From assembly GCA_010405405.1 (NCBI GenBank), contig MU004236.1, forward strand, positions 917,457 through 981,456: a stretch of 64,000 bases of DNA, written 5' to 3'. The DNA is from Microthyrium microscopicum. Taxonomy: Eukaryota. Both the position numbers and the translations under genes were made by a program. Of the stretch, positions 1-57,800 are shown piece by piece (position 1 is the first letter of the stretch; every line of letters starts with the position of its first letter). The notes beneath the pieces were generated by a model. That model was not told the origin of the DNA. It did no database searches and saw nothing but the letters and a program-made list of their open reading frames with translations.

Positions 1-366
1 AACAATACGCCAGTGCGTATCGAGCATTGGAATGTAGCTCAGATGGGCGGCCGCACTGTCGCGCGAGTGATCAACAAGAAGGGTGAACCGGAGAAGTTCA
101 TCCCTATATTCTGGTCTGCTCTGGGCCAGCAATTGAGATACTGCGGATCCACGGTTTCGGGAGGCTTTGATGATGTTGTGATCAAAGGCGCGACTAGTGC
201 TGATAAGCCGAGTTGGGTGGCATACTATACACAGGGCGAGACTGTGGTGGCTGTGGCTTCAATGGGTAAAGATCCGGTTATGGTGCAGTCTGCTGAGTTG
301 ATGAGACGGAGCAAGATGCCGACCAAGAAGGAGTTGGAGGATGGTGCTGATGTGCTGTCGTTGTAA
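1..366 (+). CDS. 3' end of AIF-like (AIFM3/Aif1-type) FAD pyridine nucleotide-disulfide oxidoreductase, truncated by window start
   Basis: Frame open from base 1: PVRIEHWNVAQ..G, FIPIFWSALGQQLRYCG, VVAVASMGKDP match the reductase C-terminal domain of fungal Aif1-like proteins. Confidence 0.8.
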   Translation, partial: NNTPVRIEHWNVAQMGGRTVARVINKKGEPEKFIPIFWSALGQQLRYCGSTVSGGFDDVVIKGATSADKPSWVAYYTQGETVVAVASMGKDPVMVQSAELMRRSKMPTKKELEDGADVLSL

Positions 367-782
367 TCTGTTGTTGTAACTTGATGGGTATTGTGAAGAA
401 AAGCATATAAGGCAACGACAATATACGAATATATCACATATTGAGCATTACAATTATGTTTGTACTTACTACCGTAATATCCCCCATTCGCGTCATGTTC
501 TAGTCTCTTGTACTTGATTCGAGATAAACCCACGCTGATCGACTATGGTAATCACTGTCCAAACTGAGTAGGACTGTTGGCATATGGTGATGTCTAGACC
601 ATAGGGGAGTGTAAGCATGATAAGAGTGTACTATTCAATCCAGATAGAGCTAATCAAGTAGTAGTTACAATTCCAAAACCAACGCCGCTGTTTAATTGCA
701 AAGAACTAGGAAAGACGATACCAAAGCTCCAAGCCCATGCATAAGCCCATAAAGTCGTACGAAACGTCTTCAAAATATATTT

Positions 783-1526
783 TTAATTGCTGGCAGAATG
801 TTAGTCACGATCATAGCACATCAATATCAAGGGGCCAACTTACAGCAATCCAAGAGTCAAATCACCATGGATCTTCGCCTTCAACTGAACTTCGATGTCA
901 AGGTTCAACTCCAGTCTCAAGCGCAATTGTTCTTTGCCTTCATCCCCACCACCCTCCTCCTTCTTTCCCCCACCAGTCAACCCACCCAACGCCTGTCCAG
1001 CAGTATTCCCCACCTGATTAACCGCATTGCCTGCCGTATTCTGCACCATATCCGTCGCCCCACTCACCGCCTCTCCACCCGGCAAGCCCTCCGCAATCCC
1101 ATCCAACGGCCCACCGCCACTCTTCTCCTGCGTCTGCGTCTGGTTCCCATTCCGCTGTCTCTGGCGCTGCCTATTGCGTCGTCCGCCGCCCACGGCGCTG
1201 ACTTCAGAGGCTGCAACACTCTCTGTGTCTGACGCATCGACGGCACCGCCTCGGCGGCCACGCCCGCGTGATTGGCGGCGGCGCGACTGGGTGCGTGATT
1301 TTGCGGGCTCGGAGGGCGCGGCGGATTCTTCGGCGGCGTCCTCGTCGGGCTCGGGGGTGGCGTCGGGGGTGGGTTGTTGTTGGGCTTCTGGTTTTTTACC
1401 GCCGAGTTTCTTTGGGGTGCGCTTCTCGGTTTTCTTGGAGGCGGATGCGCCGATGCCGCCTTGGGCTTGGGCTTGGCCTTGTCCTTCGGCTCCGAGACTG
1501 GCTTGGGCTTCTTCTGTGTCGGCCAT
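783..1526 (-). CDS. Hydrophilic low-complexity (LEA-like) protein with C-terminal LRLRLELNLDIEVQLKAKIHGDLTLGLL motif
   Basis: 228-aa ORF rich in G/A/Q/E/R. Probable terminal intron 790-843 (GTAAGT..CTAAC..CAG) gives ...LLN*. C-terminal motif shared with gene at 2924. Confidence 0.8.
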
Positions 1527-2562
1527 TGTGTTATTTGGATGTGGTTGTGATGAGATGGTTGGTTTGGTGTTATTGTTTGGGTAAAAGGGGAAGAGGCGAT
1601 GTTGTTGGGGATGTATGTAAGATGAAGTGTAGAAGGAAGAGAGTTGAGGTGAGGATTTTGAGTTGTAAGGATGTTAAAAGAAGGCACAAGGTTGGAGGGA
1701 GGCAAGGTTGAAAAGCGATCGAGATGGGAGGTGACGCAACGGGAATCAAGACCAAGAACTAAGCAACTCCAAGGATTCCAGCCTCGAGTAGTATGTACCG
1801 TATGTTGCAAAAGCACATTGCTTGACAGGGGGAATACATGTCCGTACTAGGGCAGATGATACAACGTGGAGCGATTCGAGTTCAAAAGTTGGCAGAGTTC
1901 AAATGGTTTGGCTGAATGGAGAAATTATGATGTCACATTGGAATAAACTCCGATGAAATCTCACCTGTTCCAGCCTCGTTGAACAAGGGGGAAGACATAG
2001 TTTGGGGCTTAAGACAGGGGATGTAGGGGCCATGTGCTTGTGTGAACCTTGGAAGTTGATGCAAAGTGTGGGATATTGAAGGCTGGGACAAGTTGGAACT
2101 TGCAGATGAGCTTGGAGTACCTAAAGAACAAAGAGTGGAAATGATACCTAAGCTAAGGGACATATCAAAGGATATTCCACATCATTGGTACATATGTATG
2201 ATATTCGCGTGGCAGTAGTTAGCACAAGTGGTTCACGTTGTGCCGTTTCTAAAGGTCCAACAGCTGTCGCGCTAAGTCCCCGCAAAATACTTGCACACGT
2301 TGTTACTAACAAGAAAAACGTGGAGAGTATATTTAGCAACCAGTAACAATTCATAGCAACTACTCTTATCTTTACCAATACTACCAATAGAACTTGGCGA
2401 CTGTGCTGGAGCTTTTCGACCTTACTACATAACATCGCCAAAATAATTAATCCGACGAACCTATGGCATGTACCAACCTCGTACTAATCATGTGCTCTGG
2501 TGTGTGTGGTATACGCAACTCGGGGCAAAATAAGGTGGCTCGAGGGCGTCGCCGTTGCATTT

Positions 2563-2570
2563 TGACGTCA
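2563..2570. promoter_or_regulatory. CRE/ATF-type palindrome TGACGTCA in the divergent intergenic region
   Basis: Perfect TGACGTCA ~350 nt upstream of ATG 2924, with several AGGGG/CCCCT (STRE) copies nearby. Confidence 0.4.
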
Positions 2571-2923
2571 GTGGTCTTGTATCCCTGCCATACTATCACA
2601 CCCCCCTGGTCCGGCCAGCCTTGTTCTGATGTATCAGTCCACCAAGTTATGCTACGCCAGCCGGGCAGTAATTCCGACTCTCAAATCCAAGAGTTGGACA
2701 AGTATCAAACAGAGCTTGAGCACCCTTGAACCAACATTCCTAACCTTCCCATGTGCTACTCCACCACGACCTGACCTGATATCCTTTACTTCCTTCCATA
2801 CATTTTCCTCCTACTATCTCCCACTTACTACTCTATCACTCTTTACACTCTATCATCCCCTCCTCTATCACATCTTATACACCTTGCCATCACATCTCAT
2901 ACAGCTCCTCACCAAACACCACC

Positions 2924-3439
2924 ATGGCCGCTGACCCAGTCCTCTCAGACCAAGAAGTCCAATCTGAAGACGACGAACCCAAGCAATTCCGCACTGTCCA
3001 ACAACAAGAAAAGTACGAAAACTTCCTCAAACAAAAGAAACGCGATGACGGTCTGCAATCCAACCGCTCCCGTTCCGCCTCCCGCCGAGCTCGCCGTAAA
3101 CGCATTCAACAAGCTATGGACGACGGCAAGTACATGAAGACCAACAGCCTAGAAGCTCTCGAAGAAGCCGATGCCAACGGTGAACTGCAAAATATGGGCA
3201 TGTTCGAACGCATTGGACCAGATAGCACCAGTATGGACGGACCCGTGACGGCCGCGAGAGCAATGAGAGGCGAGATTCCAATGCGTGGCACAAATCCGAA
3301 TCAGCCGTACATGCAGGAGAAGCCGAAGAGTGATCTGGCGGACCAGGATGGCCTTAAGTTGACGCTGGAGGCGAATTTGGATATTGAGATTGAACTCAAG
3401 GCGAGCATTCGGGGTGATTTGACGCTATCATTGTTGTAA
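2924..3439 (+). CDS. Hydrophilic protein with C-terminal LKLTLEANLDIEIELKASIRGDLTLSLL motif (paralogous tail to 783-1526)
   Basis: 171-aa ORF. GTAAGT donor at 3436 lies in the same codon position as in the partner gene, so a short unresolved last exon is possible. Confidence 0.8.
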   Translation: MAADPVLSDQEVQSEDDEPKQFRTVQQQEKYENFLKQKKRDDGLQSNRSRSASRRARRKRIQQAMDDGKYMKTNSLEALEEADANGELQNMGMFERIGPDSTSMDGPVTAARAMRGEIPMRGTNPNQPYMQEKPKSDLADQDGLKLTLEANLDIEIELKASIRGDLTLSLL

Positions 3440-4470
3440 GTTTCCATCCCTTCTCCTAGAATCCCTTCCTATCACTGCCCGTTTCTCCTACACGCACATA
3501 AGACATACACATGCACTCAACACATATACACTCTCTACACACACATCTCTCGTGTCATTACGATACAGAGATTCCCCACCCCTTGATGATTTCATCACCT
3601 CATATTTTTCAAAGTCAATAATGTCCGGACCATCTCATCCGTCTGACGCCGAGGAACCAGTGAATAACCCCAACCTTGCAGTGCTTGATCGATGGGAAAG
3701 ATGAGCAGTATGCAGTGGGAATCATTTCGAATGCCGGTTCAATATTCCCATTGCTTTGCTCTTGATTATCTGGTGTTGATTTATGGTCCTTTCTAGCTGC
3801 TAGGATATTCTGCATGTTATGGAGTCTAGGGAATCTTTATGAACTCTCACCAATAGGGGTGTGGTATGTCAATGAAATGATCATCAACAACTCTTTTCAC
3901 CCTCTATATTCGGTCTATCGTTTGAGCGGTGAGAGATTCTCTGACTGATGTGGCTCCAGTTCAACATTATTGCCTGATGATTTGTTGCCCAGTATTGGAG
4001 GACTGCTGTCATAAGTGCAGCGACCTTTGTCTGAGGGCCGTCTGTGATCGGTTGCGTCCTTACGATTTGCCAGACCATTTGGAAGTATGGATTGGTGATA
4101 CTACTCTACACTTTTGAAGCTTGAGTTGAGTCGAAGCAAGCAAATCGACACTCATTAACTGATCGGAGCAATCACTGCAGTTTCATCTTGCAGCCTCAAC
4201 AATTGTAGGAAAATAAATCAGACTGAAGACTTCGAAAACAACAAATTGATTCATCAAAGAGGATGGAAAATCACATTTTCGTTGAGATGAATTTTGGAGA
4301 CTCGCACCTCTGACAAGCGTGCTGCAATGACATGTCACCTTTTCATGCCACCCTCCTGCAACGACCTCGCCACATGCACCTACACGCGACATTGCTAAAG
4401 AATTCATCAACTCAAACCTTGGAGCATATCATCGTAAGCAAATATACTCTAAAAAGAGATCACATCAAGC

Positions 4471-5244
4471 ATGGAACCCGAGACTCGCACGGGATCGACG
4501 TTGGAAAAGTACCGCGTACCTGGTCTTCCAAACTCATTCTTCTACATTTCAGATTTCCTCAGCGACGAAGAATCCACAGCACTACTCGCCAAAGTAAATG
4601 CATAATTTCTCAAAAATAGATCTTGCGCTAATTTATAGCACCAGATTCCGCCCAACCGCTGGACACATCTTAGCCACCGGAGACTCCAAGCCCACCCATC
4701 AACACTAACTACCAACAACACACTCATCGCTGCCCCCCTACCACCATGGCTCACTACACTCCCAGTACGCATCAAAACCCGCTTCAAGGAATACTCTATA
4801 TTTGCAGAAACGAAACACCAGGAGCCAAACCATGTACTCGTCAACGAATACCAACCAGGCCAAGGCATAATGCCGCATGAAGACGGCAACGCATATTCAC
4901 CCGTCGTAGCCACCATAAGTCTCGGCGGCAGCGTGATTCTAGAACTGTTCGAGAAGGATACGCAAGACAATTCATCTCGAACACCCATACATCGCATCCT
5001 ACAGGAACCAGGCTCGTTGCTGGTGACTACCGGGGAGGCGTATGCATCACTGCTCCATGGGATCGCACCAATTGAGATGGACGAGGATTTGGGTCAGGAT
5101 ACGGTTAGTAATTGGACATTACTGGGGAATAAAGCAGTGTTTGAAGGGGGTAGTTGTAGGCGGGTGACGAGAGTTAGTTTGACGTATCGGGATGTGCTTA
5201 AAGTCAGTAAGATTGGAGCGGAAATATTGGGATTGAGAAGATAA
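4471..5244 (+). CDS. AlkB-family 2OG-Fe(II) dioxygenase, ALKBH6-like
   Basis: Intron ~4594-4644. FYISDFLS..E, RWTHLSHRRLQ, PNHVLVNEYQPGQGIMPHEDG (HxD), SLL, LHGI, RVSLTYR motifs. Confidence 0.85.
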
Positions 5245-5930
5245 GAAAAAATGACTAGTAACACTAAGATCATTACCACTACTGGACTATACCATCAGAG
5301 GACGTTTGGGCTTGGAATCTCATTGGAATGTTATGCTCGGAAGGAAGCATTTCCCAACTTGGCCATGTAGTTCAGTCTGTATGAAACTTGACAGCTCACC
5401 ATCTCTCCCTTGCTCAAAAATAGCCTGTATAGGCCGCTGTCACTGGCCAACTAGTACCTAGTAATCTAGCTGGCACGATCTGCAATCTGTCAAGGTACGC
5501 ATATCTCGCAAGGATATATCCCATTGCCGACTCACCTAGAGAGGAAACCCCCAAGTCTGTGCATCTCTCAATATCAACGTTCTGCTATATCAAAACGCGG
5601 CCTTTTCTTCCCTTTGAAAATTGGCCGCGTTATCTCAAAATGCAAAAGTAACAATGGCGTTTGAACAATATTTTGGTGTTTTGGATGAAAGTCTTTCTCA
5701 TTGCTTTACCAGCAAAAAATATCTAAACAATAGCGCCTACTAATTGTCATGATAACTATGACTTGTCTTGCTCGTCCATAACAAACCAAAAAAAAAGACG
5801 CAATATCTTCTCTATCGCGGCAGATATGGGCTATATATACAAATAATTTCCAGTTCTCGCTTTCCTCATCGCATGCGAATTAACTGGTGAAACAAACTAC
5901 TTCTTCCCCGTCCTCATTTACTCAACAAAT

Positions 5931-6476
5931 CTACCATCCCCAACCCTTCTGTGCTGGCGCCTGTGGGCTTCCCCAAGCGGGTGGCTTGTTGTTTTGTGGC
6001 TGGTTCCATGTTGGCGGTCTGTTGTTTTGCTGCTGGGCCCAGCCTGGTGCTTGTTGTTGTTGGCTCCAGGCGGGTGCTTGTTGTTGCTGGGCCCAGCCTG
6101 GTGCTGCTTGCTGCTTGGGCGCGCCCCAGCCTTGTGGTTGTGGACCTGGCTGTGGTTGTGCTGGAGCTTGGAGTCCGTGAGGGCCTGAAGAATTCTGTTA
6201 GAATAACGATTCTTGCACGTAGAGAAGGCCAGTGGATTTAGGCCGTGGGAAAGAAAACTTACTGAAGTTGATTCCGTCAACACCGAGATGCCAGTCTGCT
6301 CCAATGGGCTGTTTGCAACCGACTGCGCCAACGGCGATGGAGCATTGTGCGCCTAGACCTGATATGGAGAGTGTCGGGAGTTGGGCTGTGGGACTGGGTT
6401 TTGGTTTTGGGTCAGCGACTGGGGCGGCGGAAACGGCGATGGCTGCCGCAAGGACAGAGATGGTGGAGAAGAGCAT
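5931..6476 (-). CDS. Small secreted protein (155 aa) with Q/N/P-rich, Trp-periodic C-terminal repeats
   Basis: Signal peptide MLFSTISVLAAAIAVSAAP. Intron 6185-6262 (GTAAGT..CTAAC..CAG) joins in frame to SPHGLQAPAQPQPGPQPQGWGAPKQQAAPGWAQQQQAPAWSQQQQAPGW...KGWGW*. Confidence 0.8.
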
Positions 6477-7980
6477 CGTGAGTTGTATAAGCAAGCTTTT
6501 AATGAGAGACTAGGTTAAACTTGGACGGGTATACACGCTTCTCGTATCGTGAGAGGGAGAGATACTTTGCTTGATGGTTTCTTTTTCGGTCAAGTGATGG
6601 TGTTTGTTCTTATATATGAGTACTACATGCCAAAAAAGAAATCTTGGGTAATTTCGGAACACTGTTCTATTAAAACCCCCTTCGATAGTGGGCAATAATA
6701 ATTCCCGGACCAAGATACAAACCAATGGTTAATGAGATGTTACAGAGCTTTCATTCAAGGTATTATAGTTGGGATATTGCTATATGGCGGGATCATATCA
6801 CTCTGAGTGTTGAGTCGAGAGATTTCTTGCATTGCTGAATTAAAAATGGGGATCATGCTTTGATTGCCAAGTGAATCTCGATTCTAACTCCAGATGTCGC
6901 CCTTTAATCACTGAAAACCTGGGCGGTTGTAGTATCAAATGGTGATAAGTCCTTCTATTTGCCTCCTCTAGTTTTGGAATCCCGAGTAGCGGTTCTGTGT
7001 AAATATATCAACCCCGATAAGGGCTATTTACAGCTTGATGGTATACCCGTCAATCCCTAAACAGACTGCTAAGTGATAATATGTCCGAAATGGGGCTATT
7101 GAGAACCTCTTGCTTTGCAAAAGGCTCTGTGCGGATATATCATCAGGCTCAAAACAGACATTTTGAGAATACTCTACTTTATTGAAGTGAAGGGTTATTT
7201 TAGGATATACCAAGGTACCAAGGCATCTAGTTCGGCATGAATCTGCCATACAAACTATACGTGGACTACTCTACTAGGCGAAGGCCAAAAACCAACAGAT
7301 CGTGCCTGACAAGGCAAAACTTGCGGCTCTCTGACAGCAAATACCAAGAGGTTTCTTCATCTATCCATCGGGACGTAAACGCCGATATTCAAAATAGGTG
7401 GTCTGAGTGCCGCGGATCGAAATACCATGGACCACTCGGAGCATTTGCATTGATATTGGACAACCGTCGAAAGAGATATCTAGATTCGATTATGTGGTAG
7501 CCGCAAAAAGGGCCGTTCTCAACATAGAATATATTGATGGCGACGATTGACAGTCGAATAAGAATCAGCATGGGCTTATGTACCTGGTCGAATAGTTGTC
7601 GCTTATAGGGCTGTTAGTCAGGGGTCGATTGGACTTGTCTATATCAGGATTATGGATATGGTGTCGATCTAGTAGTTTTTGATTAACCGAACGATTGGAC
7701 CCTAACGTCAAGTCTTGTGCGGCTCAATTCTACCTAGCTTATTCGTACACGATCTACTACATGGATGGACCAAGTGCTCGAATCTGGATCTAAGATGGAC
7801 TGAATTAGGTAGTCCTTGCCTCGATGGTAGAGTCTATAGATAGTTTCAATGTTCAGAACCACGCGATTCTACGAAGAAAGTAATATAGAGAATCCGAATC
7901 CGCGGATTGCTATAAAGATATCTTCAATTGTAGATGGATCTCCCCGGCTTAGCCGATGGTGATATAGTATACGTTATACC

Positions 7981-8060
7981 GAGCAACAGAGCAACAGAGC
8001 AACAGAGCAACAGAGCAACAGAGCAACAGAGCAACAGAGCAACAGAGCACCAGAGAACCA
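7981..8060 (+). repeat. Octanucleotide tandem repeat (GAGCAACA)n
   Basis: 8 perfect copies 7981-8044 followed by two degenerate copies (GAGCACCA, GAGAACCA). Confidence 0.95.
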
Positions 8061-8624
8061 GTCTGACTTTCCATGGCTCTTGGAGTTCGCCAAGTCTTCG
8101 GTATCTCCAAAGTGATCCTCAAACTATGCTAACCATGGGATCTCTACGTTGGTGTTTTCAGTTCGGTAGTGGTTCGTAGACTTCTGGAGACGGCAAGATT
8201 GATGGTGTATCAGCACTATCCATAACGTTATACAGTCCTAACCGTCCGCATGGAGGCATCGTTCGTCATGATATACTATCACTGTATAAACAATATCGTA
8301 TCATAGGTCAAAACTTCTGAATGGTGGCAACTTCGCGACATGTAGGACCATGAATTGGGATTACTAGAGATTAGCGACATGAGAAGTGCCGGAATATGAC
8401 CAATCTAATGTAGAAAGACAAGCTTGCGACATAATCTTCGTTCTAGAGTGAATAACATAAAAACATGACCTTCATGCCAAGCAACATGATCGATCTAGAA
8501 GCCTCAGCAGATGAAGTATTATCACTGCTCCCCGAAGAACGTCTATTGCGCAATATCACATCCAAGTCTCCCAAGATACAATCCAGACCGTCAATCAGTC
8601 AAGTCCTCTTCCCCGAAACCCTTT

Positions 8625-11438
8625 CTAGCCACGAAGATCCTCTCCAGCATTCTTCAACCTCTCCCATCCCTCCGTATCCTCCCACGCACCCTTTCCCCGC
8701 CCCATAATCCCCCGGACCGCGCTCCTCGCCTTGAACTTCCAGTCTTTCATCACCAGCTCCCCGGATCCAGCACTCAGTCCCTCGGTTCGCTCGCGCGGCC
8801 CCAGTTCTCGGTACGCTTCTACAAGCGTTAGTGTAGCGTCAACGACGGCATTCCACTGCTCCTCTGTGCCAAATTCCCAGCCTGGCTGCACTGTGGTCGC
8901 GCGCCAAGCTTTCTCGCGCGCTTCCAATGCGCTGGTCAGCTTGTCGCGCCAGAGAGCTAGATGAGCTACCAGAGCCCAGAGATCGGCGGACGCGGTGATT
9001 AGAGGGGTGATGCTACGGTCAAAGAGAGTGCAAACGGAGCGTGAGAGGCCGGGTCGTGATGTATCGGCGGTGGCGTAGGGGACGCCGGTGAGATGGTCGA
9101 CTAGGAGACGGAGTATTTGAATATCGAGACACTTTTCACCGTCGGCGTTGCCGCGGAGGTCGATAATGCGTTGTTGGGCGCTGATGATGTCGGGGTAGGA
9201 TGGTGGGCGGAGAGTGGCGGAGACAGTGAGCATGTTGGACCAGATGCGGAAGTTTTCGCGTTTGAGTTTGGCAGCTTGTTTGAGGGCGTTGAGGGCGTCG
9301 CGGATGTGCCTTTGTGGGTCGATGTCGGTGGAAGTTGGGTTGGTGGTTTCGTCAGTATCCGTTGAGTCGTCAGTGGGTGGTGGGATGCTGTCGGTTTTGG
9401 GATGGTCGTTCGGATCGAGGTTGAGGAGAGCTACGGCTAGATTACTCCAAGATTCTGCGTCTTCGTTGTCGAGTTGGACAGCTCGTGTGAAGACTTCGAC
9501 GGCTTTGGAGAATTGATCAAGCTCTAGGAGGGCGCAACCCATTGCGAACCAGGTGGCATGGTCGACCTGTCGGACTTTGACGGCTTTGGAAAAGGCCAAG
9601 ACAGCTTTGGCGTATTCTCTGAGTCCGAACCAGTATCGTCCGAGAGATCGCTGTGCTCGATGATATCTGGACTTGGAGATGACCCATGCGCGTTCGTACA
9701 TGGCAGGATCTTTATCCAAATCCCCAAGAATGCAGTAAAGACGAGGTGCATCTAGTGGCAGAGGATCGCGCTCTTTGCCTTCCCATTTCTCAGTATCGTC
9801 GACGACAGAGTCATCGCCTCCAGTAGCAAGAAAGAGCTGCCGGCGAATGATCTGTCTCGCCTTGTCGTCACGCTCGATACCAGCCCAACAAAGAGCAACC
9901 TCTGGCCACATTTCCAACCGTTCATATATCTCCAATGCCGTCTTCAAACCGCCTAGATTGACCCATCGGGCAGCCAACTCTGCCTCCAATTCCCATCTTG
10001 TTGGTGACGCAAGTTGAAACACATATTGAAGACGTTCAGCCGGCGAAGCAGACTCCTCATCCGTCGTGGGCCGTGGTAAGAACGTTGTCACTGAAGGTTG
10101 TGTAGCGTCTGCTGATACGGTAGTTTCGGCAATGACTTGATCTACCAGCGCCTGTAGCTGAAGCAGACCACGCTCGACTGTGCGAGACTTATATCCCTCG
10201 ACGCGACTACGTAGAAGGAGCGCTTGCGTGTACACTTGCCAATTTGAGCTCCCGCCTTCGATGACACGAATCGCATACGGCGCGGTCTCCTCTCGTGTCA
10301 ACCCATCGTTTGGTGATGTGTTTGTGATGGAAGCTGCGGTTAGGAGTAGAATGATTGCATCAAGTGATTCGAGAGGTTGTTTCTCGGTGTCTCCTTCTTT
10401 CAGTGACTGGGCAAGGCCATCTTCTTCCTGGAATTCAGGGGATATCTTTTTGTCACTGAACGATATTGATTCCAGCAGGGTGTCATCGTTGAGATCAAGC
10501 GCTTTAGGTACTGCTTCTTTAGAATCCTTTTCATGAACTGGTTTGTCTCCCGCGCTTCGAGCCAGTACCACAAGCTGACTAGTCTCTCTTTGTTGGAACT
10601 TTGTTCTCTTTCCCAGTAATCCTGTCAAGGCGAATTCAAAATGGCGTTCCTTGACCGCTTCGACTAGAGTTTTTCTAGCTTCTTGATCTTGATCATGATA
10701 GATCTCGATTGCTGCTTTCTCCAGTAGGAATGCTGCTTTTATGTCCGTGTTGGAAGCGTTGGCAGTTGTCGATGACAAGTGCGACTGTACATTCTTGATA
10801 TCTTCAAACAATGCAGACTGTAATGATATTGCCTTCTCCGAAAGTAGCCTCTGGTGAATGAAGTTCGTTCGTAACCTTAACCAATTGGAAGAGGGAACAT
10901 GAGCAATAATAGAAGGAGATATCAGAATGACTTTGGCCAATCCAAAGAGTGCCAGATGAGGTGCAAGTCGATATGGAGCAGCTCCATCAACTACCAACGA
11001 TTCTGCTAGCTTCTTTTTGATTTCTTTTTGCTGGATGGGATCCGCTGCTGTTTTGGCCTCGAACAGAGTATTCTCAATAGAAAAATCCAGAGGAGGACCA
11101 GTGACGTTGCTCTGTATGAATGCGCCAAGGGCCGCAGCCGCAAGAAGAGTGAAAAAGTGTGTTTTACTTAATAATTCATCTCCGGAGTCAGTCTGAGCGT
11201 TGCTTCGTAATATCAACTCGAGTCGATGTGAAATAAAGTCTGGCCATGAGGCAAAGCTCTCCAATTGAAGCTCTTGTAGGAGTTCATCGTTCTCAAGACC
11301 AAGAAGTAACTTGGCTAGAGGCGCATTCAGAAGCTTCTCAAAGACGCACGTTTCTAGTGATTTGATATGTTCTGCCAACGAAGATGCAATTTCTTCAGGT
11401 AGCTTTCCACGAATGTACTCAACCACAACGTCTGTCAT
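8625..11438 (-). CDS. EMW1: TPR protein TTC27/Emw1 homolog
   Basis: Long intronless ORF with FIQSNVTGP, LTGLLGKRTKFQ, LNDDTLLE, SSNWQVYTQALLLRS, RTVERGLLQLQALV and TPR repeats. ATG at 11438. Confidence 0.85.
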   Translation of the reverse strand: MTDVVVEYIRGKLPEEIASSLAEHIKSLETCVFEKLLNAPLAKLLLGLENDELLQELQLESFASWPDFISHRLELILRSNAQTDSGDELLSKTHFFTLLAAAALGAFIQSNVTGPPLDFSIENTLFEAKTAADPIQQKEIKKKLAESLVVDGAAPYRLAPHLALFGLAKVILISPSIIAHVPSSNWLRLRTNFIHQRLLSEKAISLQSALFEDIKNVQSHLSSTTANASNTDIKAAFLLEKAAIEIYHDQDQEARKTLVEAVKERHFEFALTGLLGKRTKFQQRETSQLVVLARSAGDKPVHEKDSKEAVPKALDLNDDTLLESISFSDKKISPEFQEEDGLAQSLKEGDTEKQPLESLDAIILLLTAASITNTSPNDGLTREETAPYAIRVIEGGSSNWQVYTQALLLRSRVEGYKSRTVERGLLQLQALVDQVIAETTVSADATQPSVTTFLPRPTTDEESASPAERLQYVFQLASPTRWELEAELAARWVNLGGLKTALEIYERLEMWPEVALCWAGIERDDKARQIIRRQLFLATGGDDSVVDDTEKWEGKERDPLPLDAPRLYCILGDLDKDPAMYERAWVISKSRYHRAQRSLGRYWFGLREYAKAVLAFSKAVKVRQVDHATWFAMGCALLELDQFSKAVEVFTRAVQLDNEDAESWSNLAVALLNLDPNDHPKTDSIPPPTDDSTDTDETTNPTSTDIDPQRHIRDALNALKQAAKLKRENFRIWSNMLTVSATLRPPSYPDIISAQQRIIDLRGNADGEKCLDIQILRLLVDHLTGVPYATADTSRPGLSRSVCTLFDRSITPLITASADLWALVAHLALWRDKLTSALEAREKAWRATTVQPGWEFGTEEQWNAVVDATLTLVEAYRELGPRERTEGLSAGSGELVMKDWKFKARSAVRGIMGRGKGAWEDTEGWERLKNAGEDLRG

Positions 11439-11871
11439 GTTGACTGTAGCCAAGCAGGTGGCGGAAAGGGTATGGCTAGTAGCTTCGAATTTGCGGTCGC
11501 TTTGAATTATGCAGGTGAGGAACGAACGCGCGCTGTGTGCGAGACGAAAGCTAATTTTTCCTCATCTCAGACTCTCAGTAAGTTTTTTGACGTTAATAAT
11601 TTGTTGGAAGAAATTCGAAGCTTCTAGCTCCCGGGCTGCGTATATTGCCCCGCGATCAATACAGCGAGCCCCTACAAGTCGTTACAGAGGACCGGTAACC
11701 AATTTAGGAATTATACTCAGCCTTGTTCAACCAACTTGGCATATGCGAATACCAGTCATCTGTCTTGGTCGAAGTCGCATACGTAGGAGTATAAGAGCTT
11801 CATGGTCTCAAAACTTTGATAGATACAAACATCAAATCGTATCAAATAAATGATATTTCGACGGCCTCCCC

Positions 11872-12642
11872 ATGGAAGCTCAAAAGAAAGTACCATTTCG
11901 CCAAATACGCGCCGTCTTCGACGAAGACACTATTACAGTCTATCAAGCATATAACTCCCAGATTGCAGATGCAGCTGTAGCCGCACAAAGACTGGATGCA
12001 TCACCGCTTTATAGACTAAGCAGGATGACATGGATCAAACCCAGTTGGACTTGGGTGAACTATCGTTCTGGCTATTCCTATAAGGTAGCATCATCTGAAT
12101 ATCAGCTAAGTAGTCGTATATTAATGACATTCAGGATGCAAATCAAGAGCGAATCTTAGCTCTCAAAATAACCCACGAAGGATTTCTACAAATCTTGCGT
12201 AGTGCTCATCTGAGCCATGGGCCGCCAGGGTATCAAATTGGAGGTAAACAGGGTGCTAGAGTTGTAGTACAATGGGATGTAAGTGACTAGATGGCGATGA
12301 TCACGATCCTCTGATACTAACAGCAATGGCTAGCCAGAAAGGTCTCCACGTTTAGTAAAGCTAGACTTTCGAAGTATTCAAATTGGGATACCAGGAGTTA
12401 TGGTAGGGCAATGGATCAGCGACTGGATTGTTGGGATCGAGGATGTCACAGCTAAGGCACGAGAGTTGAAGCGTGTTTTGGATGAAGACAGGAACATGGC
12501 GACGCCTGAGCTTGTGGAACGAGGGTTGATGCCAGTAGAACGGGAGTATGTTGTGCCAGATGACTTGCAGGACTCGCTGCAGATGCGAGTGAGGATTGAA
12601 GAAAAAGAAGAGGTTAACATAGTTGATAAGGAGAGTACCTAA
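11872..12642 (+). CDS. DUF4291 family protein (3 exons)
   Basis: RQIRA.FD..TITVYQAY, MTWIKPS, YRSGY, ERILA, VVQWD/PER, SIQIGI motifs. Introns ~12085-12134 and ~12279-12333. Confidence 0.8.
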
Positions 12643-13276
12643 GAGGTAGCATTTGATACTACACGGGTAGTAGGATAATGAAGGGTTTGCAGGGTATAGC
12701 TTTTAAGGGTATAGACCACTGGAAGTGATGGTGATAACCCCGAAAGCTCATCATTGTCCCCAGTGGAGATGAGATGGCAAACAAGAAATGCTGGTCAGAA
12801 AGGTTAGAGTAATGTATGAAGTGCAGGAAATATGCGAGTGCTCAACTTGTTAGCGATGTGGACTGATGCGGTTGGCTTGTCAAGGCCTGTCTCGTGCTGC
12901 CCTTGCCTCTTTGGGATGCCTTTTTCAACGGGCCTGCCTGGTGGCCCTGGTCTGCATTCAACCTCCTCCTATCCAAACTTCTCCACCACCAAAGCAAGAA
13001 TCCACAAACCAAACCAACCAGCTGTGCGGCAAGTAATCCTGCAATCCGCATCCAACCGCATCAAAATCGACCTCTTCTGTTCCTCTGCGGGCCCGCTGTA
13101 ATCCGCTGTTCCACCATACCCCTACCCCGGACTCTACCAACCAGCCATCTGCTACCTACTTCTATACGCAACTCTACCGCTCTAGGTCTGCATCAGTGCA
13201 TGTACCATCCTGCAGTCTTTTCTGCAACGCCATGAAGCTGCTGCCGCCTCGTTAAGCGCGCTCGCTCACCTACTCA

Positions 13277-15492
13277 ATGATGGCCTCAACCACTCCTGTT
13301 CCTTCTCACTCTGCTACCAGCTCCCCGCTTGGCTCCTTGAGCTCCTCCAACAACACTTTCACTATGCCCCCTAGTCCCTCGAGACTTCGCAAGTCCTCCT
13401 CCGCTCCATACAAACCCCATATCATCACTACCGTTGGTGCCAGACCTGCTTGTCTCGTCAACGCATCCGTCACATATGTCGGGGACGACCAGATATATGC
13501 CTTTGGTGGCTTCGATCAATATACTGACGAAGTCTATAACCACGTCCTGCGTCTCAATCTGAAAACCAAGCAATGGAATCTAGTCGACAATTACGGCGAT
13601 ATTCCGGGCGTGCGAATGGGTAAGTTTGCTTCATACACTTCCTTGTCTTGCACTAAAACACTATAGGGCATACTGCAAGCCTCTGGGAAGGACACAAACT
13701 TCTAGTCTACGGCGGTGAAAACGAACATCGAGCATATCTTTCCGACGTCATCATATTCGATCTTCGAAGTGCAACATGGACTCAACCCGAAATAGGTGGT
13801 GTCCCTCCACGTGGCCGAGCCCGTCACTCTGCCGTTATACACGATGAGAAGTTATGGATATCAGGCGGTATGACTGGACACGCTAGTGATGTTCTGGACG
13901 ACGTTTGTTATCTTGACTTGAAAACCTGGACTTGGTCAAGAATCTGGAAGTTTGTCCCTCGGCTGGATCACACTCTCTGGGTTTGGAGCGGTAGAATATG
14001 GGCGTTCGGAGGAATGAATGAGGATATGGAGCACTCTAGTGAGCTCTGGTGGATCGATTTCCGAGGATCACCAGGATTTGGACAACGAAGCGTCGATAGT
14101 AGAGACCGCTTAACCCCATCCTGGAAAGCTTCAGGCCAGTCGCAGTCCATTCAGGTCTATAATCCGAACGCGCAATCCCATACTGCCAACTCGGGCAGTG
14201 CTCAAACAATGCTATCAGCAGCTCAGGTCCAGAATACACGGCCTTCTCCGGGAACTGTGTCTATGCTCAAATTTGTGTCTACTCCCCATCTTACGGCGCA
14301 ATCTGTAGGCCATCATTTTCATGTATATTCTTCTGGCTATCTTCTTGACTTTGCAACACCAGCTAGTGTATTATCTACGGCGGAAACGAGCCTTTGTGCT
14401 CTGGACCTGGAGACTCTACGATGGTTTCGCCTAGCCGATGGCAAAGACTTGTTCAACCCAACATATCGCTGGCATTATTGTGCCATGAACGAAGACGGAA
14501 CGCAGACTTGGTTATTGGGATGCCCACCAGAATCAGCCATTACACGTGATAACATCACGGAAGAACTACTTAGCGATGTTCTCCACATTGACCTCGTTAA
14601 ACTAGGAGTTATTGGCAACAAGCTGCATTCCGAGGTCACTCGATCATCCGGACAAGGCCCAACATCAGATACCATTCCACGATCACCACTCTCGGCAATT
14701 GGAGCAGATCTAGCTCGAATGTTCGACCAACCGCCAGAAACCGGCAGTGGCACAGATTTTATTGTCACAGGCATCAATGACGACGAAATTATAGATCACA
14801 GCATGATGGACAAACAGCATCACACCACCAAATCACTCCACGTTCACAAACTCATCCTCCAAGCCCGCTGGCCACACTTTGCCCGCCTCTACCACTCCCA
14901 AATGCTCGAATTCCATACCAAAAAACTCGCGCTCCCTGAACCTTACTCTACCGTCCGCGCCTTCCTCTACTACCTCTACACCGACTCCATAGCCCGCGTG
15001 GACGCCGCTGACAATACCAAAGAGGACCCTTCCCTCGGCAATGTTGCTGGCATGCTGGTCATGGCAAACATGTACGACATGCCCCGCCTGCGTGGTCTCT
15101 GCGTCGACCGTCTGGGTAAGGAGCTAGATGTTGAACATGCAGCAGCCATCTGGGAGCGCGCCTCAACTGCAGGTGAAGATTGGCTGCGTCGCCGAGCTGC
15201 GCGCTACTGCATGACGCATTGGGGACGTGTTGTGCGCACCGAGGCCTTCCGCAGCCTGCCTCAGCCTAGTATCGTAGAGCTGTGCGAAGAAATTGACGAA
15301 GAAGGCCGTGTATTGGGCGGCGCAGAACTCGAAGTTGTCGGTGGACTTTCAGGCTCACGACTGGGCGGTGGAAGCGCTGGTCCAGTGTCACTGGGTGCTT
15401 CACGACGTCGCGGTACGGGCAGCGTTATGGTGGCTGGTACGGATAGTGATGAGATTGACGAGGATGTGGAGGTTGAGATGGATGTCAGCTGA
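13277..15492 (+). CDS. Kelch-repeat + BTB/POZ protein (Ral2/LZTR1-like)
   Basis: Kelch repeats (IYAFGG, LVYGG, LWISGG, IWAFGG) and BTB (LHVHKLILQARWPHF, FLYYLYTD). Intron ~13620-13666. Confidence 0.85.
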
Positions 15493-16754
15493 GCGAATTA
15501 TATGCATACATACATAGATAACATGGGTCGGCGTGCTTCTGGTACAAAATATATCGGTATATGGGTTGCACTGCGTGAGGCAGTGTGGTGGGTCGGGACA
15601 TTTGTGGCTTTTTCTTTGCTCAGGCGCTGGTGATGGTATATTTCTGAAAGATAAAAGTATGATGTTATGTAGTAGTGTATTATGAGCAATGAATTTATGA
15701 ATACTTAGCGGGTGTTTGGCCCTTTTCTCCATACTGGCATTTGCTGGACGTAGTACTTCAAGAGCAAGGAAAACTGAGACAGGTGCGATTCGAGAATGAA
15801 GACAGGGGCACCTGTGTTGGCCAATTCCTTTTCAACTCGAATCACTGCAAGATGCAAAATCAACTTCATCGCAGGCTGCGCCACACCTCGTCTGCAGGAG
15901 AGAAGTCTGATGAACTCGAAAATGTTTTCGCAGATGTCTCATCCATTGGTGGCATGGTATGAGCGAGGAGATATTCATGCGCTCAAGGAACAGCACCGAC
16001 ACGGTAGACTGGGAGGCCACTGCCGACGAAGTTTTTTCTCCAAGTTTCGCAAACGTCATGAGGTAAAGTCTGCTCGAAGCTCCACAAACATTTTACACCA
16101 GGCTGAGGCTTGTGAAAGAAATCTCTCCACCAAGATACGGACACAACTCCGAGAAACCGCTCTCTCAACGCTTCCTGAGCCACTCGTGCAACGACACGAT
16201 AACATCTAGTACGCCACTAAGCTAGCCACAGCTGCGGCGTGGTCAAGAAAAAAGCAATCAATCAATATCAGAGAGCAGCTGGGCATCTGGCAACCAGTCA
16301 AAATCATTGCTTGGCGAGGTTTTGCAGTAAATGAAACAAGGGGGAGGCCGTTACGTCTTTTGCCGACGCTTTGAGTGAGGCGTTGGAGGCTGTGCTGATT
16401 TGGTTTACGATCAGGCTGAGAATTATTCATTGTTGGTGGTAAGAAGGGTCATGAACTCGGTGAAGGAGTGCAAGTATAAAAGTATCGGTGCTTGCCAAGG
16501 AAACGTCTGCTTTCTTTCGATTTATTTCAGTATCGAATTTTGAAGAATACCTTATAGTCGCTTAAACGTTCGCTGAATCGATCGATTGTTGTGCTGTCCT
16601 GTTAAGTCTGTTGGTAAGTCACCGGCCTCATTGCGGAAAATTGCTCCACACCACTGGATGAGCTAACATATACTATAGCATACTTTAAACAGCAGATAGT
16701 GTATCTACTGGACTCTACTCTGATTGCCTGACCTTATCGTACTTGACACTCGGC

Positions 16755-54850: not shown

Positions 54851-57800
54851 TCATCTCTTTCTTCTCTTCCCTCCACCCCCTACCCCATCCCAAGCAGCCC
54901 GTTTTTTACCCTCACGCCGCCAAAACTCTTGACTCTCACGCTTCTCCCGCTGTTCTCGCTTCTCCTCGCCCTCAGCTACCTTCTTGCGATGTGCCTCACG
55001 ATGCTTCTCCTTGGACTTGTGCCGCTTCTCCTCCTTCTCCCGCCGTAGCGTAAGTACCTGCTGCAACAAGTTCCTCGCTTGCTTTTCACTCTTGTCCGCC
55101 ACAACCGCCCGCTTCTGCAAATACGTCTGTTTGCCCTGCGGCAGTGTGCGCGTCGGCTGCGCCTTGAACGGCAAACTAGCCTGCAACTTGCGCGGAATCT
55201 GCAGAGGATTAAAGTGTCTCTCATGACGCTCTACTGGCCGATAAGCCGAGTCCTTGTCCTGCGGAGTAGCAATCCCTTGGTCACGACGCACTTGGCCAGT
55301 AAGCCTCATGCCAGACCAGCCATCTGCCGCAGGTGAGTCGAGCAAATTGGTTACGGGGTTGTAAAAGCGGTGTGGCTTGATGGCGTACCAGGCGCGCAAA
55401 AAGACGATATCGCTCATGAGGATCTTGTCTTCGAAGGTGGCGCGATAGTGGCCTTCAGGCTTGCTAAGGGCGCGCTTGATTTGGCCACGAATTCCGGAAA
55501 CGGTACGGATGCTGGCGCCTTCAAATTTGGCGATTTCTAGCGCGCTATTGAACATGTCTTTGATGAAAGCTGTGTTGCGGAAGATCTTGTATGGGTGGCC
55601 AGTGAGTTTAAGCTTTTTGACAATTTCGACGGATTCGTCAACGTTGAGAACGACCCCTGTGGCCGCGACTCGGAAACCGGGATTGCTGTTGGAAAGAGAT
55701 TGAAGGCAGCAGAATGGAGTCGCTGGTGCAATTAGCGGACCGTATATTGTGCCGAAGCAATGCATGTGCTCTGGGGTATATTTGAGCATTCGATTGCGAG
55801 TTCGCGAATCTGATATGCTGTACAGTGGCATTGTTTGAAAGCGTCGCCATCCAAGGGAGAAGATTAAAGGATCATTCGTTTTCAAGATCTTCTTGTGCCA
55901 TCTGTGACGTTTGATTCTGACTTGGAGGTATCCAAATCTATCTTCTGTGGAAGTGAGACCTCCAACGATGAGAGGAAATCGAGGATTGAACTGCTCGCAG
56001 AATTCAAATGGTACATCGTTCAGTATGATGCGTGCGTAGGTCCCTGCTTTAAATCCTTCCACGCGAACTCTTGACATCTCATCCAGTTGATCAAATTCGG
56101 TTCGGTTGATAGATTGCTGCTTCTCTAGCAACGATTTCTGCGCATCATACCAATCGTCTTCACCAAATTCCTCGTCGACTTCGCCTTCCTTTCGAGCATT
56201 GGTTTTGTCGTTCAAGAAGCCTTCGCGATCCTCTTCCTCGAACCGCTGTGTCAATTCTTCTTTCCGTCGTGCATTGCGTGCTCTTTCTTCTTCAATTGTG
56301 CCTTCAACCTCTGGCTCTTTCTTCTCCCCGTTGGACTTCTCTCCAGTTTCGAGATCTTCAAATTCTCCATCACCTTCGTCGTCCTCATCAAAGCCTTCGA
56401 AGCCATCTTCATCTCCGTCTTCGCCGCTGCCACGGACCCCCATTGTGGTAAACTTCCTCCGCAAGTTGTCAAACACTTCGTCAGCATCGTATTTTTCTTC
56501 CAATGCCTGGTAGTCAAACTTTGGTAGTCCACGATCCTCATGTTCAGTCTGTTCAGCTCCATTGGACTTGCTAAAAAAGTCATCTTCCTCGTCTCCAATC
56601 TCCGCTGCTGAAACTGTTTCTCCTTTCCACTGTTTTACAGCATCGGCCGGTGATATTGCACTTGAGTACAAGAGCATGCGAAGTTCTGCGGTTCGGTATG
56701 TAGGACGTTTTCCATGATATTCCAGTGCATTCAACGCGAGGCGCTCTTTCCACCTAAGCTCATTCTCGTCTTCAGACTCATAGTCCTCAACAAACTCGTC
56801 TTCATCTTCAACAGAAACATCGTCTCTAGATGAAACGGACCCAAGATCAGAGTCACTGTCCGCAAACTCAACGTCGCCATCGACTTCTTTATCTTCCGAC
56901 CGATCACCTGCTTTCGATTCAAAAGATTCTGAGGGGATATGCTCTTGATCATCCAGTCCATCGTCCAATTCTTCATCCGAAGCTCCAGCATCGGCATCAC
57001 CATCAATTGCTACATCGTCGTTTGCATCGTCCTTCTCAATGATGCGGACTTTTCGTGGAGCTGATCGACCCGAGTCATCCAAATCATCGGGGTCGTATTG
57101 AGCCCGAACTTCTGTGCTCCCTTGAAAGAGTCGCAAACCCGTCTCTCCCTCACCTAGCAATTTTCGTTCTCCTTGAAGGCTGACCATCAATTGCTCTCCA
57201 AGACCTCGATCTTCCATATACTCAGCATCCTTATCAAAGGTAGCGGACTTGACGTCAATATAAACAGCGTCTTTGTCCACAAGCACACCTCCAACATCAG
57301 ACATTGGCGAGTATAATATCTTTTGTTTCTCTCCTAGCTTTTGAGGTCTTGACTTTCCAGTCGCCTTCTCGATAGCTTGCTCCAGATGAGGCGTCGGACA
57401 TGGATCGGGAAGAGCTTCTATCCTAGACACTTTTGAGTCGCCGAGACCGGGTATATGGACTCTTGCTCCCTCAGCCGTGAAATTCGTGCCGCCTCTTAAA
57501 TATCCGTACAAAGCTACCGTCCGATCGCACTTGGGGTCCGTCTCGATTTGGGTTGGTGGGGTGATATCCAAGAAACGATCTGCTAGGCAGTATGGATGTG
57601 ACTGTCGGAAAATCAACGGTCGGGGCTTTTTCATGACAGACAAGAATCTGGAGAGGTTCAGAACTTCTCTGTCAGGATACCTGCCATTGATGACACCGGA
57701 AAGGTAGAATAGCTTTGCGCCTTGGTATAATTCGCTCCAGAACCTGTGCTTTAGTCGCTTCTTTTGTGCTTTCAGAGTTTCTTGTTTCTTAAAAAGATCT

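Follow-up and report, generated by a model that had tools for sequence, protein, structure and literature searches.

A C-terminal β-strand module shared by two adjacent genes of Microthyrium microscopicum and by a large family of Pezizomycotina proteins: a candidate self-assembly tag

The two genes described here, designated A and B, lie close to the start of a 64,000-nucleotide stretch of DNA from Microthyrium microscopicum (assembly GCA_010405405.1, contig MU004236.1, positions 917,457 to 981,456 of the forward strand), which was analysed at its full length and is referred to as the window. As first read, gene A is an open reading frame (ORF) on the reverse strand (840..1526, 228 residues, C-terminal end LRLRLELNLDIEVQLKAKIHGDLTLGLL) and gene B is one on the forward strand (2924..3439, 171 residues, C-terminal end LKLTLEANLDIEIELKASIRGDLTLSLL). 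The genes stand head-to-head, and the 1397 nucleotides (nt) between their start codons (1527..2923) form a common 5′ intergenic region whose promoters face away from each other and of which positions 2205-2739 have scarcely any contig cover. An initial reading made from the letters alone, termed the sequence-only reading below, had proposed that these divergent ORFs encode dissimilar hydrophilic bodies ending in the same 28-residue tail of alternating hydrophobic and polar residues, and that they form a candidate co-assembling two-component system. The pair proved to be real and as described. BLASTP of A against B aligns the tail alone, with 20 of 28 residues identical at E 1e-10, the next segment being returned at E 18. 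The tail module occupies residues 201-228 of A (843..926, reverse strand) and 144-171 of B (3353..3436, forward strand), scoring 60.8 and 59.0 bits respectively with a hidden Markov model (HMM) of the tail, and a scan of the whole window with this model identified A and B as the sole carriers at E<0.1.

The alternation within the tail, described at the outset as almost perfect, far exceeds chance. The hydrophobic moment at 180 degrees is 1.16 for the tail of A and 1.02 for that of B, values that were reached by 0 of 100,000 shuffles of each tail; at 100 degrees it is 0.08 and 0.27, respectively. Odd positions 1-19 and 23-27 are Leu, Ile, Val or Ala, the Gly at position 21 and the Asp after it are invariant, and the even positions carry charges in a fixed order with positive ends and a negative middle (R/K, E6, N8, D10, E12, K16, G21-D22). 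E6, N8, E12, K16, D22 and T24 vary little or not at all among the tail types. By a simple tally of cross-strand charge pairs, which is crude and involves no structure, the antiparallel register i+j=26 is the best or equal best for A:A (+6) and A:B (+4) and gives +2 for B:B, behind i+j=30 (+4); the in-register parallel arrangement is the worst case throughout, at -9 for A:A, -8 for B:B and -7 for A:B. The antisense frames lying over the tails (753-1229 on the forward and 3152-3424 on the reverse strand of the window, and likewise in many other loci) also alternate, for example QITMDLRLQLNFDVKVQLQSQ, and those in the window match the tail HMM weakly at E 0.5-0.8; they are probably a mirror image arising from codon complementarity, with no second gene involved.

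The stop codons of both ORFs fall within GTAAGT splice donors whose first letter is the third base of the final Leu codon, so that the protein ends as first read had to be corrected. Coding exon 1 of A accordingly spans 844..1526 on the reverse strand (residues 1-228) and that of B 2924..3435 on the forward strand (residues 1-171), the last codon of each being split after its second base. Spliced joints were sought in two public sequencing runs, X1 and X2, whose kind (RNA) is guessed and not on record. The terminal intron of A (790..843, reverse strand) is a 54-nt, phase-2 intron of the form GTAAGT...TGACTAAC...CAG, in which TGACTAAC is the branch site, and its joint 789/844 is found in both X1 (side of 156 letters) and X2 (side of 94). 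A terminal micro-exon (783..789, reverse strand) then completes the Leu codon, adds an Asn and ends in the stop codon TAA (783-785), yielding a spliced product of 229 residues that ends in ...GDLTLGLLN, as do homologues such as P0007 and the loci without this intron. The terminal intron of B (3436..3681, forward strand) has two acceptors and extends over either 3436-3660 (225 nt) or 3436-3681 (246 nt); the corresponding joints in X1, 3435/3661 and 3435/3682, have GT..AG ends and a short side of 27 letters, which is under the 31-letter bar set for joints. The micro-exons that follow (3661-3667 or 3682-3688, forward strand) supply ...LSLFE or ...LSLFA before the stop codon, giving a product of 172 residues that ends in ...GDLTLSLFE or ...GDLTLSLFA, and both ends occur among homologues (LFE in P0126, LFA in P0123). 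The two acceptors lie 21 nt apart and the choice between them alters the last residue alone, E or A; in Verruconis gallopava, two annotated variants (P0172 and P0173) differ likewise, their ends being LFA and LFS, and the final residue might be subject to regulation. For A, X1 contigs extend over 844-1187 and additional parts of the exon; an X1 contig at 2754-3435 takes in coding exon 1 of B. Both genes are transcribed and spliced, and a micro-exon of one or two residues completes each tail.

Ahead of the tail, both proteins are strongly hydrophilic, with a grand average of hydropathy (GRAVY) of -1.01 for A and -1.02 for B, contain neither Cys nor Trp, and differ in their Gly content (16.7% and 5.8%). 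Their N-termini are hydrophilic, and neither translation has a signal-peptide-like or long hydrophobic stretch. The Arg-rich runs reported from the letters are indeed found in each body: in A they are RRRQSRGRGRR (residues 82-92) and GGGRRNRQRQRQR (113-125), together within 1152..1283 on the reverse strand and kept in the A family, and in B the run comprises residues 53-60. The basic stretch NRSRSASRRARRKR of B (3062..3103, forward strand) includes S49, R50, S51, S53, R54, R55, R57 and R58, all invariant in the family alignment, and the form RSRS.SRRRRRQ is retained in other classes. A conserved segment of the A family, GATDMVQNTAGNAVNQVGNTAGQALGGLTGG (residues 156-186; 969..1061, reverse strand), has nearly invariant V161, Q162 and G177 and, at 0.44, the highest helical moment in the protein, while the conserved core of B, GKYMKTNSLEALEEADANGEL ... 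FERIGPDSTSMDGPVTAARAMRGEIPMRG (3125..3289, forward strand), consists of long invariant runs in the B-family alignment and includes the motif FERIGP..SM.GPVT.ARA.RGEIP, which is retained across classes. Contrary to the sequence-only reading, the body of B is not loosely disordered: its identity across Dothideomycetes amounts to 70-85%, and it contains invariant motifs and long runs without variation. An AlphaFold2 (AF2) monomer model of B, built from a 21-sequence alignment, reached a mean predicted local distance difference test score (pLDDT) of 57.2 and a predicted template modelling score of 0.28, values too low to serve a fold search, with helices at residues 25-41, 47-66 and 76-84 and a pLDDT of 34-47 over the tail; that the tail is unfolded in this model is as expected of a module that would need partners in order to fold. 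For the ESM Atlas model (its own pLDDT 0.54), feature matches were to unnamed ascomycete clusters alone, and structure matches had template modelling scores of 0.34 or less.

Homology searches returned 174 homologues of A and 881 of B at E<=0.01. Among the matches listed, all named sources belong to Pezizomycotina and the entries are called hypothetical or similar; the genera include Pseudocercospora, Alternaria, Aureobasidium, Verruconis, Diplodia, Aspergillus, Penicillium, Thermomyces, Coniochaeta and Alectoria. A sordariomycete member used as the query brought in 193 further homologues, including those of Trichoderma, Thermothelomyces, Neurospora, Fusarium and Gaeumannomyces, so that carriers occur in Dothideomycetes, Eurotiomycetes, Sordariomycetes and lichen fungi. 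A tail profile of 34 columns, constructed from 25 tails and scored against 1.84 billion cluster representatives, matched 997 representatives at E<=1e-3 and 244 at E<=1e-10. The position of the tail and the nature of the bodies were analysed in the best 150 of these 997 matches, 124 of which were new. In 93 of the 124 the tail ends no more than three residues from the C-terminus; in the remaining 31 the gene model continues past it, 14 of them reading L-Y-V as an unspliced GTATGT or GTACGT donor would. When the bodies from the window were compared with the 124 by BLASTP, B matched 30 and A matched 10, the other 84 being fragments or proteins whose bodies show no link to A or B by BLAST. The tail is almost always C-terminal and is carried by a variety of hydrophilic bodies. 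Many database gene models, P0005, P0008, P0015 and P0346 among them, run through the terminal intron and thereby acquire false C-terminal extensions of 10-170 residues, and some are fused to the next gene, as P0346 is to an MnmE/TrmE GTPase. Two copies of the tail are present in each of P0243 (283 residues), which resembles two tandem tail genes fused in one model, and P0251 (113 residues), a direct tandem repeat of the tail core.

No folded domain characterised in Pfam or the PDB accounts for this module, in agreement with the sequence-only reading, which had counted membership of a characterised folded domain against its own proposal. A search of Pfam-A at E<=1 returned only KIAA1549 for A (E 0.57) and nothing for B, and no Pfam family covers any of 49 relatives, whose sole domain matches lie downstream of the tail in P0345 and P0346, two over-long and apparently merged gene models. 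A search of the PDB with the B-family profile gave a best E value of 0.067 and nothing meaningful. In the searchable literature, no match was found to the locus tags An12g10450, TRIREDRAFT_72581, MYCTH_2299605 and VM1G_03651 or to four tail strings, and nothing relevant was found for amphipathic β-strands in combination with Pezizomycotina. The tail module and the conserved pairing of A with B thus appear to be undescribed.

The conservation of that pairing was established in metagenome contigs, in which a scan with the B alignment located 72 loci. A gene of the A family lies beside B in 28 of the 29 loci that have at least 2000 nt upstream of B, at a distance of 741-1307 nt where the two are in tandem and 851-1031 nt where they are divergent. 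Among the loci with less flanking DNA, seven more show A and two start inside an A tail; in the remaining 34 of the 72, the upstream DNA is too short for A to be judged. Clustering of the carriers in other genomes, a check named beforehand, was hence found. After loci with B genes at least 97% identical had been merged (the input being 33 of 73 sequences, namely the A-bearing loci, L059 and the window), 23 distinct pairs were left, of which 19 are in tandem, with A followed by B on one strand, and four, including that of the window, are divergent. The head-to-head order emphasised initially is thus true of the window and is the rarer arrangement elsewhere; what is conserved, down to relatives of B with 50% identity, is adjacency. 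The surroundings of the pair are themselves variable. The flanks of the window (1-700 and 3700-16000) had no tblastx match in any of the 72 loci, and flank sharing among the loci, seen in 69 of 210 pairs, was mostly attributable to a gene encoding DUF2470 (e.g., L013 1907-2851, reverse strand, Pfam E 5.5e-10). This gene is a neighbour of A and B in 17 loci, where, depending on the clade, it stands upstream of A or downstream of B, and no homologue of it was found in the 64-kb window. Gene order in these fungi decays fast, and an adjacency that survives changes of orientation and of flank is therefore a strong sign of functional coupling. The B-like gene of L059 and L060 is 53-56% identical, with LLLTL as the end of its tail and a AACCGGTT site at -220. 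The proposition that metagenome contigs of about 1 kb might be transcripts was rejected, given that no poly(A) ends were found in them and that two of them begin with promoter sequence containing a cyclic AMP response element (CRE).

Judged by their sequences, A and B are old paralogues, because the terminal intron lies at the same phase-2 position in both families. Across the metagenome loci and the window, a phase-2 donor occupies the identical position in 23 of the 32 distinct tails of A and in 46 of the 56 of B, and the rest, which have no terminal intron, end in LN (A) or in FA, YA or YE (B). The bodies, taken to be dissimilar, do not align, and to that extent the description stands; underneath lies a plan common to both families, consisting of an N-terminal acidic or basic stretch, an Arg-rich run, a conserved middle motif (VQNTAG..AV..VG.TAGKALGG in the A family, FERIGP..SM.GPVT.ARA.RGEIP in the B family), an acidic or Gly-containing linker and the tail. 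In addition, where B comes from a more distant lineage, its tail (LKLRLELNLDIEIELKA.I.GDLTLALL) falls between the two types seen in the window. The pair most likely originated by tandem duplication in an early filamentous ascomycete, after which the bodies would have diverged while the tail and its intron stayed fixed, and the restriction of A-B similarity to the tail is best explained by such an old duplication with later divergence of the bodies. A third tail-bearing gene, whose body belongs to no Pfam family, is situated about 2 kb downstream of B, on the forward strand, in L023 (7409-7826) and L024 (7442-7859); its tail, LKIKIELDLEVEVEIYARVKGDVTIGLM, is more divergent at 32.7 bits and is followed directly by a partial second copy of the tail end.

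The promoters of the two genes were examined by an unbiased count of 8-mers in 24 lineages (35,902 nt) relative to the remaining DNA of these loci (128,280 nt). At the head of the list stand two palindromes, namely AACCGGTT, found in 15 of the 24 lineages and 0 times elsewhere, and TGACGTCA, in 13 of 24 and again 0 times elsewhere, followed by TGACGCAA and GCAGGGAT, each in 11 of 24 lineages with three occurrences elsewhere. In the window, a TGACGCAA element of the bZIP half-CRE type is located at 1732..1739, 206 nt upstream of the start codon of A, and in 10 other distinct loci this element falls between -179 and -335 of A. A perfect CRE palindrome of the ATF/CREB type, TGACGTCA, occurs at 2563..2570, 361 nt upstream of the start codon of B, and 18 nt past it lies the ATCCCTGC / GCAGGGAT element (2581..2588), which adjoins the CRE in several loci. 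Positions of these elements are stereotyped, and the types are swapped between the promoters of A and B in different clades: in one group of loci the A promoter has TGACGCAA near -200 and AACCGGTT near -150, and the B promoter has TGACGTCA between about -240 and -490; in another, TGACGTCA lies near -300 of A and AACCGGTT near -390 of B. The most economical reading is that A and B are probably co-regulated by the same factors, because conserved sites of the TGACGTCA or AACCGGTT type are found in both promoters. A 594-nt contig of X1 at 1564-2157, 5′ of the start of A and of a depth below that of the A coding contigs, spans the TGACGCAA element at 1732 and could represent either an extended 5′ leader, begun further upstream, or an independent transcript of that region. 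A second perfect TGACGTCA occurs in the window at 57250. Comparison by eye of GCAGGGAT with known motifs, including those of BrlA and the stress response element (STRE), gave no fit.

Candidate regulators are suggested by published binding sites. In conidia of Aspergillus nidulans, AtfA binds ATGACGTCA; TGACGTCA forms the core of its chromatin immunoprecipitation sequencing (ChIP-seq) consensus and likewise of the site of fission-yeast Atf1 (PMC12731236). AACCGGTT is the Grainyhead-type site of Neurospora GRHL, which is csp-2, a regulator of conidial separation (PMC3348937). By inference alone, the promoter elements suggest a stress or spore-development programme.

Taken together, the interpretation that we tentatively favour, with a probability of roughly 0.45, is that the tail is a natural, ionic self-complementary β-strand tag, similar to the designed peptide ELK16, which would assemble disordered bodies through antiparallel sheets as part of a stress or spore programme. 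The observations on which it builds are the paralogy of A and B, the breadth of the family, the conserved linkage, transcription and splicing, the cis-elements and the β-amphipathic pattern. The sequence-only reading had likewise suggested assembly through β-sheets, and a β-assembly module remains plausible for the tail. The assembly itself, hetero-pairing, the regulators and the physiological role are what we infer, in the following form. A and B, paralogues by tandem duplication and neighbours ever since, would each be cytosolic, very hydrophilic, Arg-rich and largely disordered proteins whose function rests on the 28-residue C-terminal module carried behind a flexible acidic or Gly-containing linker. 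This module would form one long strand of two-residue periodicity with a Leu/Ile/Val face opposite a face of patterned charge. Tails may then pair in antiparallel fashion, both with their own kind and with the other, burying the Leu face between two sheets; A and B would presumably be able to co-assemble because their tails are near-identical. Such pairing might gather the disordered bodies into oligomers or a reversible network, to which B would contribute its conserved FERIGP...RGEIP motif and RSRS/Arg stretch, and A its RGG-like runs and VQNTAG segment. Both genes would be switched on jointly through the ATF/CREB-type CRE, with the Grainyhead-type AACCGGTT site participating in many lineages.

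The comparison with designed peptides may be drawn more closely. EAK16 derives from yeast zuotin. Like the tails of A and B, EAK16 and ELK16 alternate strictly between hydrophobic and charged residues and contain blocks of like charge that are complementary in antiparallel register. ELK16, or (LELELKLK)2, has been attached with a linker in between to the C-termini of four unrelated proteins, and the fusions gave rise to active in-vivo assemblies with bands of antiparallel β-sheet (PMC3045283). In both the fusions and the fungal proteins the peptide is C-terminal behind a flexible linker, whereas the fungal tails differ in being natural, in having 28 rather than 16 residues with no simple repeat, and in their invariant N8 and G21-D22 and uncharged LTLxLL end. 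EAK16 and ELK16 constitute no natural protein family, and the likeness is accordingly one of proposed mechanism and not of membership.

Several findings weigh against the self-assembly tag and its joint use by A and B. Tails of A and B carry an equal charge pattern, so that hetero-pairing is not favoured over homo-pairing (+4 for A:B and +6 for A:A), and AF2 places a low-confidence helix at residues 138-150 of B, overlapping the start of the tail. The orientation of the two genes is not conserved, and the B-like gene of L059 has no A within 5 kb upstream, which is the sole exception to the linkage; L060 holds the same B with too little flank. The promoter counts derive from related, non-independent lineages and from comparison DNA that is partly coding, and are indicative only; AACCGGTT is absent from the whole window, and the RNA nature of run X1 is a guess. 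Finally, the invariant polar residues of the tail and the highly conserved body of B could equally mean that the tail docks on one specific folded partner.

This last point leads to an alternative in which the tail is a docking peptide that adds a strand to a single conserved folded partner, such as a chaperone, a transport receptor or a degradation factor, with the carriers acting as clients or adaptors and the adjacency of A and B being a remnant of duplication kept by shared regulation. The extreme conservation of both faces of the tail over some 1000 clusters while the bodies diverge freely would be well accounted for, as would the strictly C-terminal position and the way in which a micro-exon, together with alternative acceptors, tunes the final one or two residues. 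It is nevertheless rendered doubtful by the finding that no third gene accompanies the pair everywhere, the DUF2470 neighbour being present in 17 loci and absent from the window, and by the 28 residues of strict alternation, which in our judgement are far longer than typical strand-addition motifs.

Amphipathic β-strands, such as those of apolipoprotein B, bind lipid particles, and C-terminal β-hairpins target mitochondrial barrel proteins. The tail could by analogy be an interfacial anchor, that is, an amphipathic β-strand or hairpin whose Leu/Ile face rests on a hydrophobic surface (for instance a lipid droplet, a membrane or a mitochondrial import receptor) and tethers the hydrophilic body to it, A and B thus coating the same surface. 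One face of the tail is indeed pure Leu/Ile/Val for more than 20 residues, the tail is at the extreme C-terminus of proteins with hydrophilic N-termini, and it is unfolded in the monomer model of B. Non-specific binding to a surface, however, needs no invariant polar face (E6, N8, E12, K16, G21-D22), and a lone strand on a surface cannot satisfy its backbone hydrogen bonds without forming sheets, by which token this explanation, unlikely in itself, largely contains the assembly step of the self-assembly tag.

Fungal amyloid-signalling pairs, including HET-S/NWD2 and those with HRAM, sigma and PP motifs, are encoded by neighbouring genes and share a motif of about 20-40 residues with conserved Asn and Gly and a β pattern. 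A and B resemble them in that a short motif is common to adjacent genes and has a conserved Asn and Gly, as fungal amyloid motifs do, and the motif might in principle template an in-register cross-β fold in a prion-like manner. An in-register parallel stack would, however, set like charges together (the -9, -8 and -7 of the charge tally), which also speaks against the amyloid-like form of assembly entertained by the sequence-only reading, and the tally revealed no charge complementarity of A with B. In A, B and the 49 relatives, Pfam searches detected neither NACHT or NB-ARC domains nor effector domains of the HeLo, HELL, SesA or lipase type, and no NLR/STAND, HeLo, HELL or other effector domain was present in these proteins or in the scanned neighbouring ORFs of the window. 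The motif is C-terminal in both carriers (its placement in the wider family being known from the best 150 of the 997 profile matches), the family greatly exceeds those of the amyloid-signalling pairs in size, and it differs from them in its hydrophilic, disordered bodies, so that a system of this kind is highly improbable. That the similarity is a chance or low-complexity artefact, or that the ORFs are not genes, is suggested only by the unusual composition and the alternation of the antisense frame of the same DNA and is refuted by the pairwise E of 1e-10, the hundreds of homologues that keep the tail, the spliced contigs for both genes and the conserved linkage.

Hydrophilic proteins of the stress type offer a further comparison. 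Hydrophilins have Gly above 6% and high hydrophilicity, and the CAHS proteins of tardigrades are thought to gel via sticky, β-prone ends. The composition of A is Gly 16.7% with GRAVY -1.01 and that of B Gly 5.8% with GRAVY -1.02, and A and B share with hydrophilins, late embryogenesis abundant (LEA) proteins and CAHS proteins their very hydrophilic, Cys- and Trp-free, partly disordered bodies, together with promoter elements of stress or spore regulators. B differs from these groups in its Gly content and its highly conserved, non-repetitive core, and to our knowledge a single C-terminal β tag of fixed sequence is no feature of LEA families. The suggestion in the sequence-only reading that similar tails occur in "LEA-domain" proteins of ascomycetes found no support, in that no LEA (LEA_1 to LEA_6) or dehydrin profile of Pfam matched A or B at E<=1 or any of the 49 relatives, and LEA does not figure among the names of the 120 matches listed in each of three homologue searches, which include "hypothetical", "uncharacterized", "integral membrane" and "BZIP domain-containing".

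A bolder version of the self-assembly tag, which we regard as improbable as a whole, would see a lineage-wide system in which some 1000 clusters of disordered, hydrophilic proteins carry one fixed β tail and A and B form an obligate co-polymer, serving as the scaffold of a reversible gel or condensate, under an AtfA-type and Grainyhead-type switch in spores or under stress. The alternative acceptors of the micro-exon (LFE versus LFA) would then tune assembly, and the system would be a fungal analogue of the gel-forming proteins of tardigrades and a natural counterpart of ELK16 tags.

The tail is among the most conserved short modules of these proteins, yet no Pfam model, solved relative or mention in the literature was found for it. 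Should the self-assembly tag be confirmed, it would reveal the means by which fungi organise one class of disordered proteins in spores or under stress, provide a handle on spore dormancy and desiccation tolerance, and offer a ready-made, evolution-tested tag for protein immobilisation. Regardless of the mechanism, the family merits a domain model and its gene models need correction.

Further ORFs near the pair in the window are of ordinary kinds and comprise the C-terminal, Reductase_C end of a reductase (1-366), a fragment of a 2OG-Fe(II) oxygenase (4870-5244), a TPR protein of 937 residues (8625-11438) and a Kelch/BTB protein (13870-15492).

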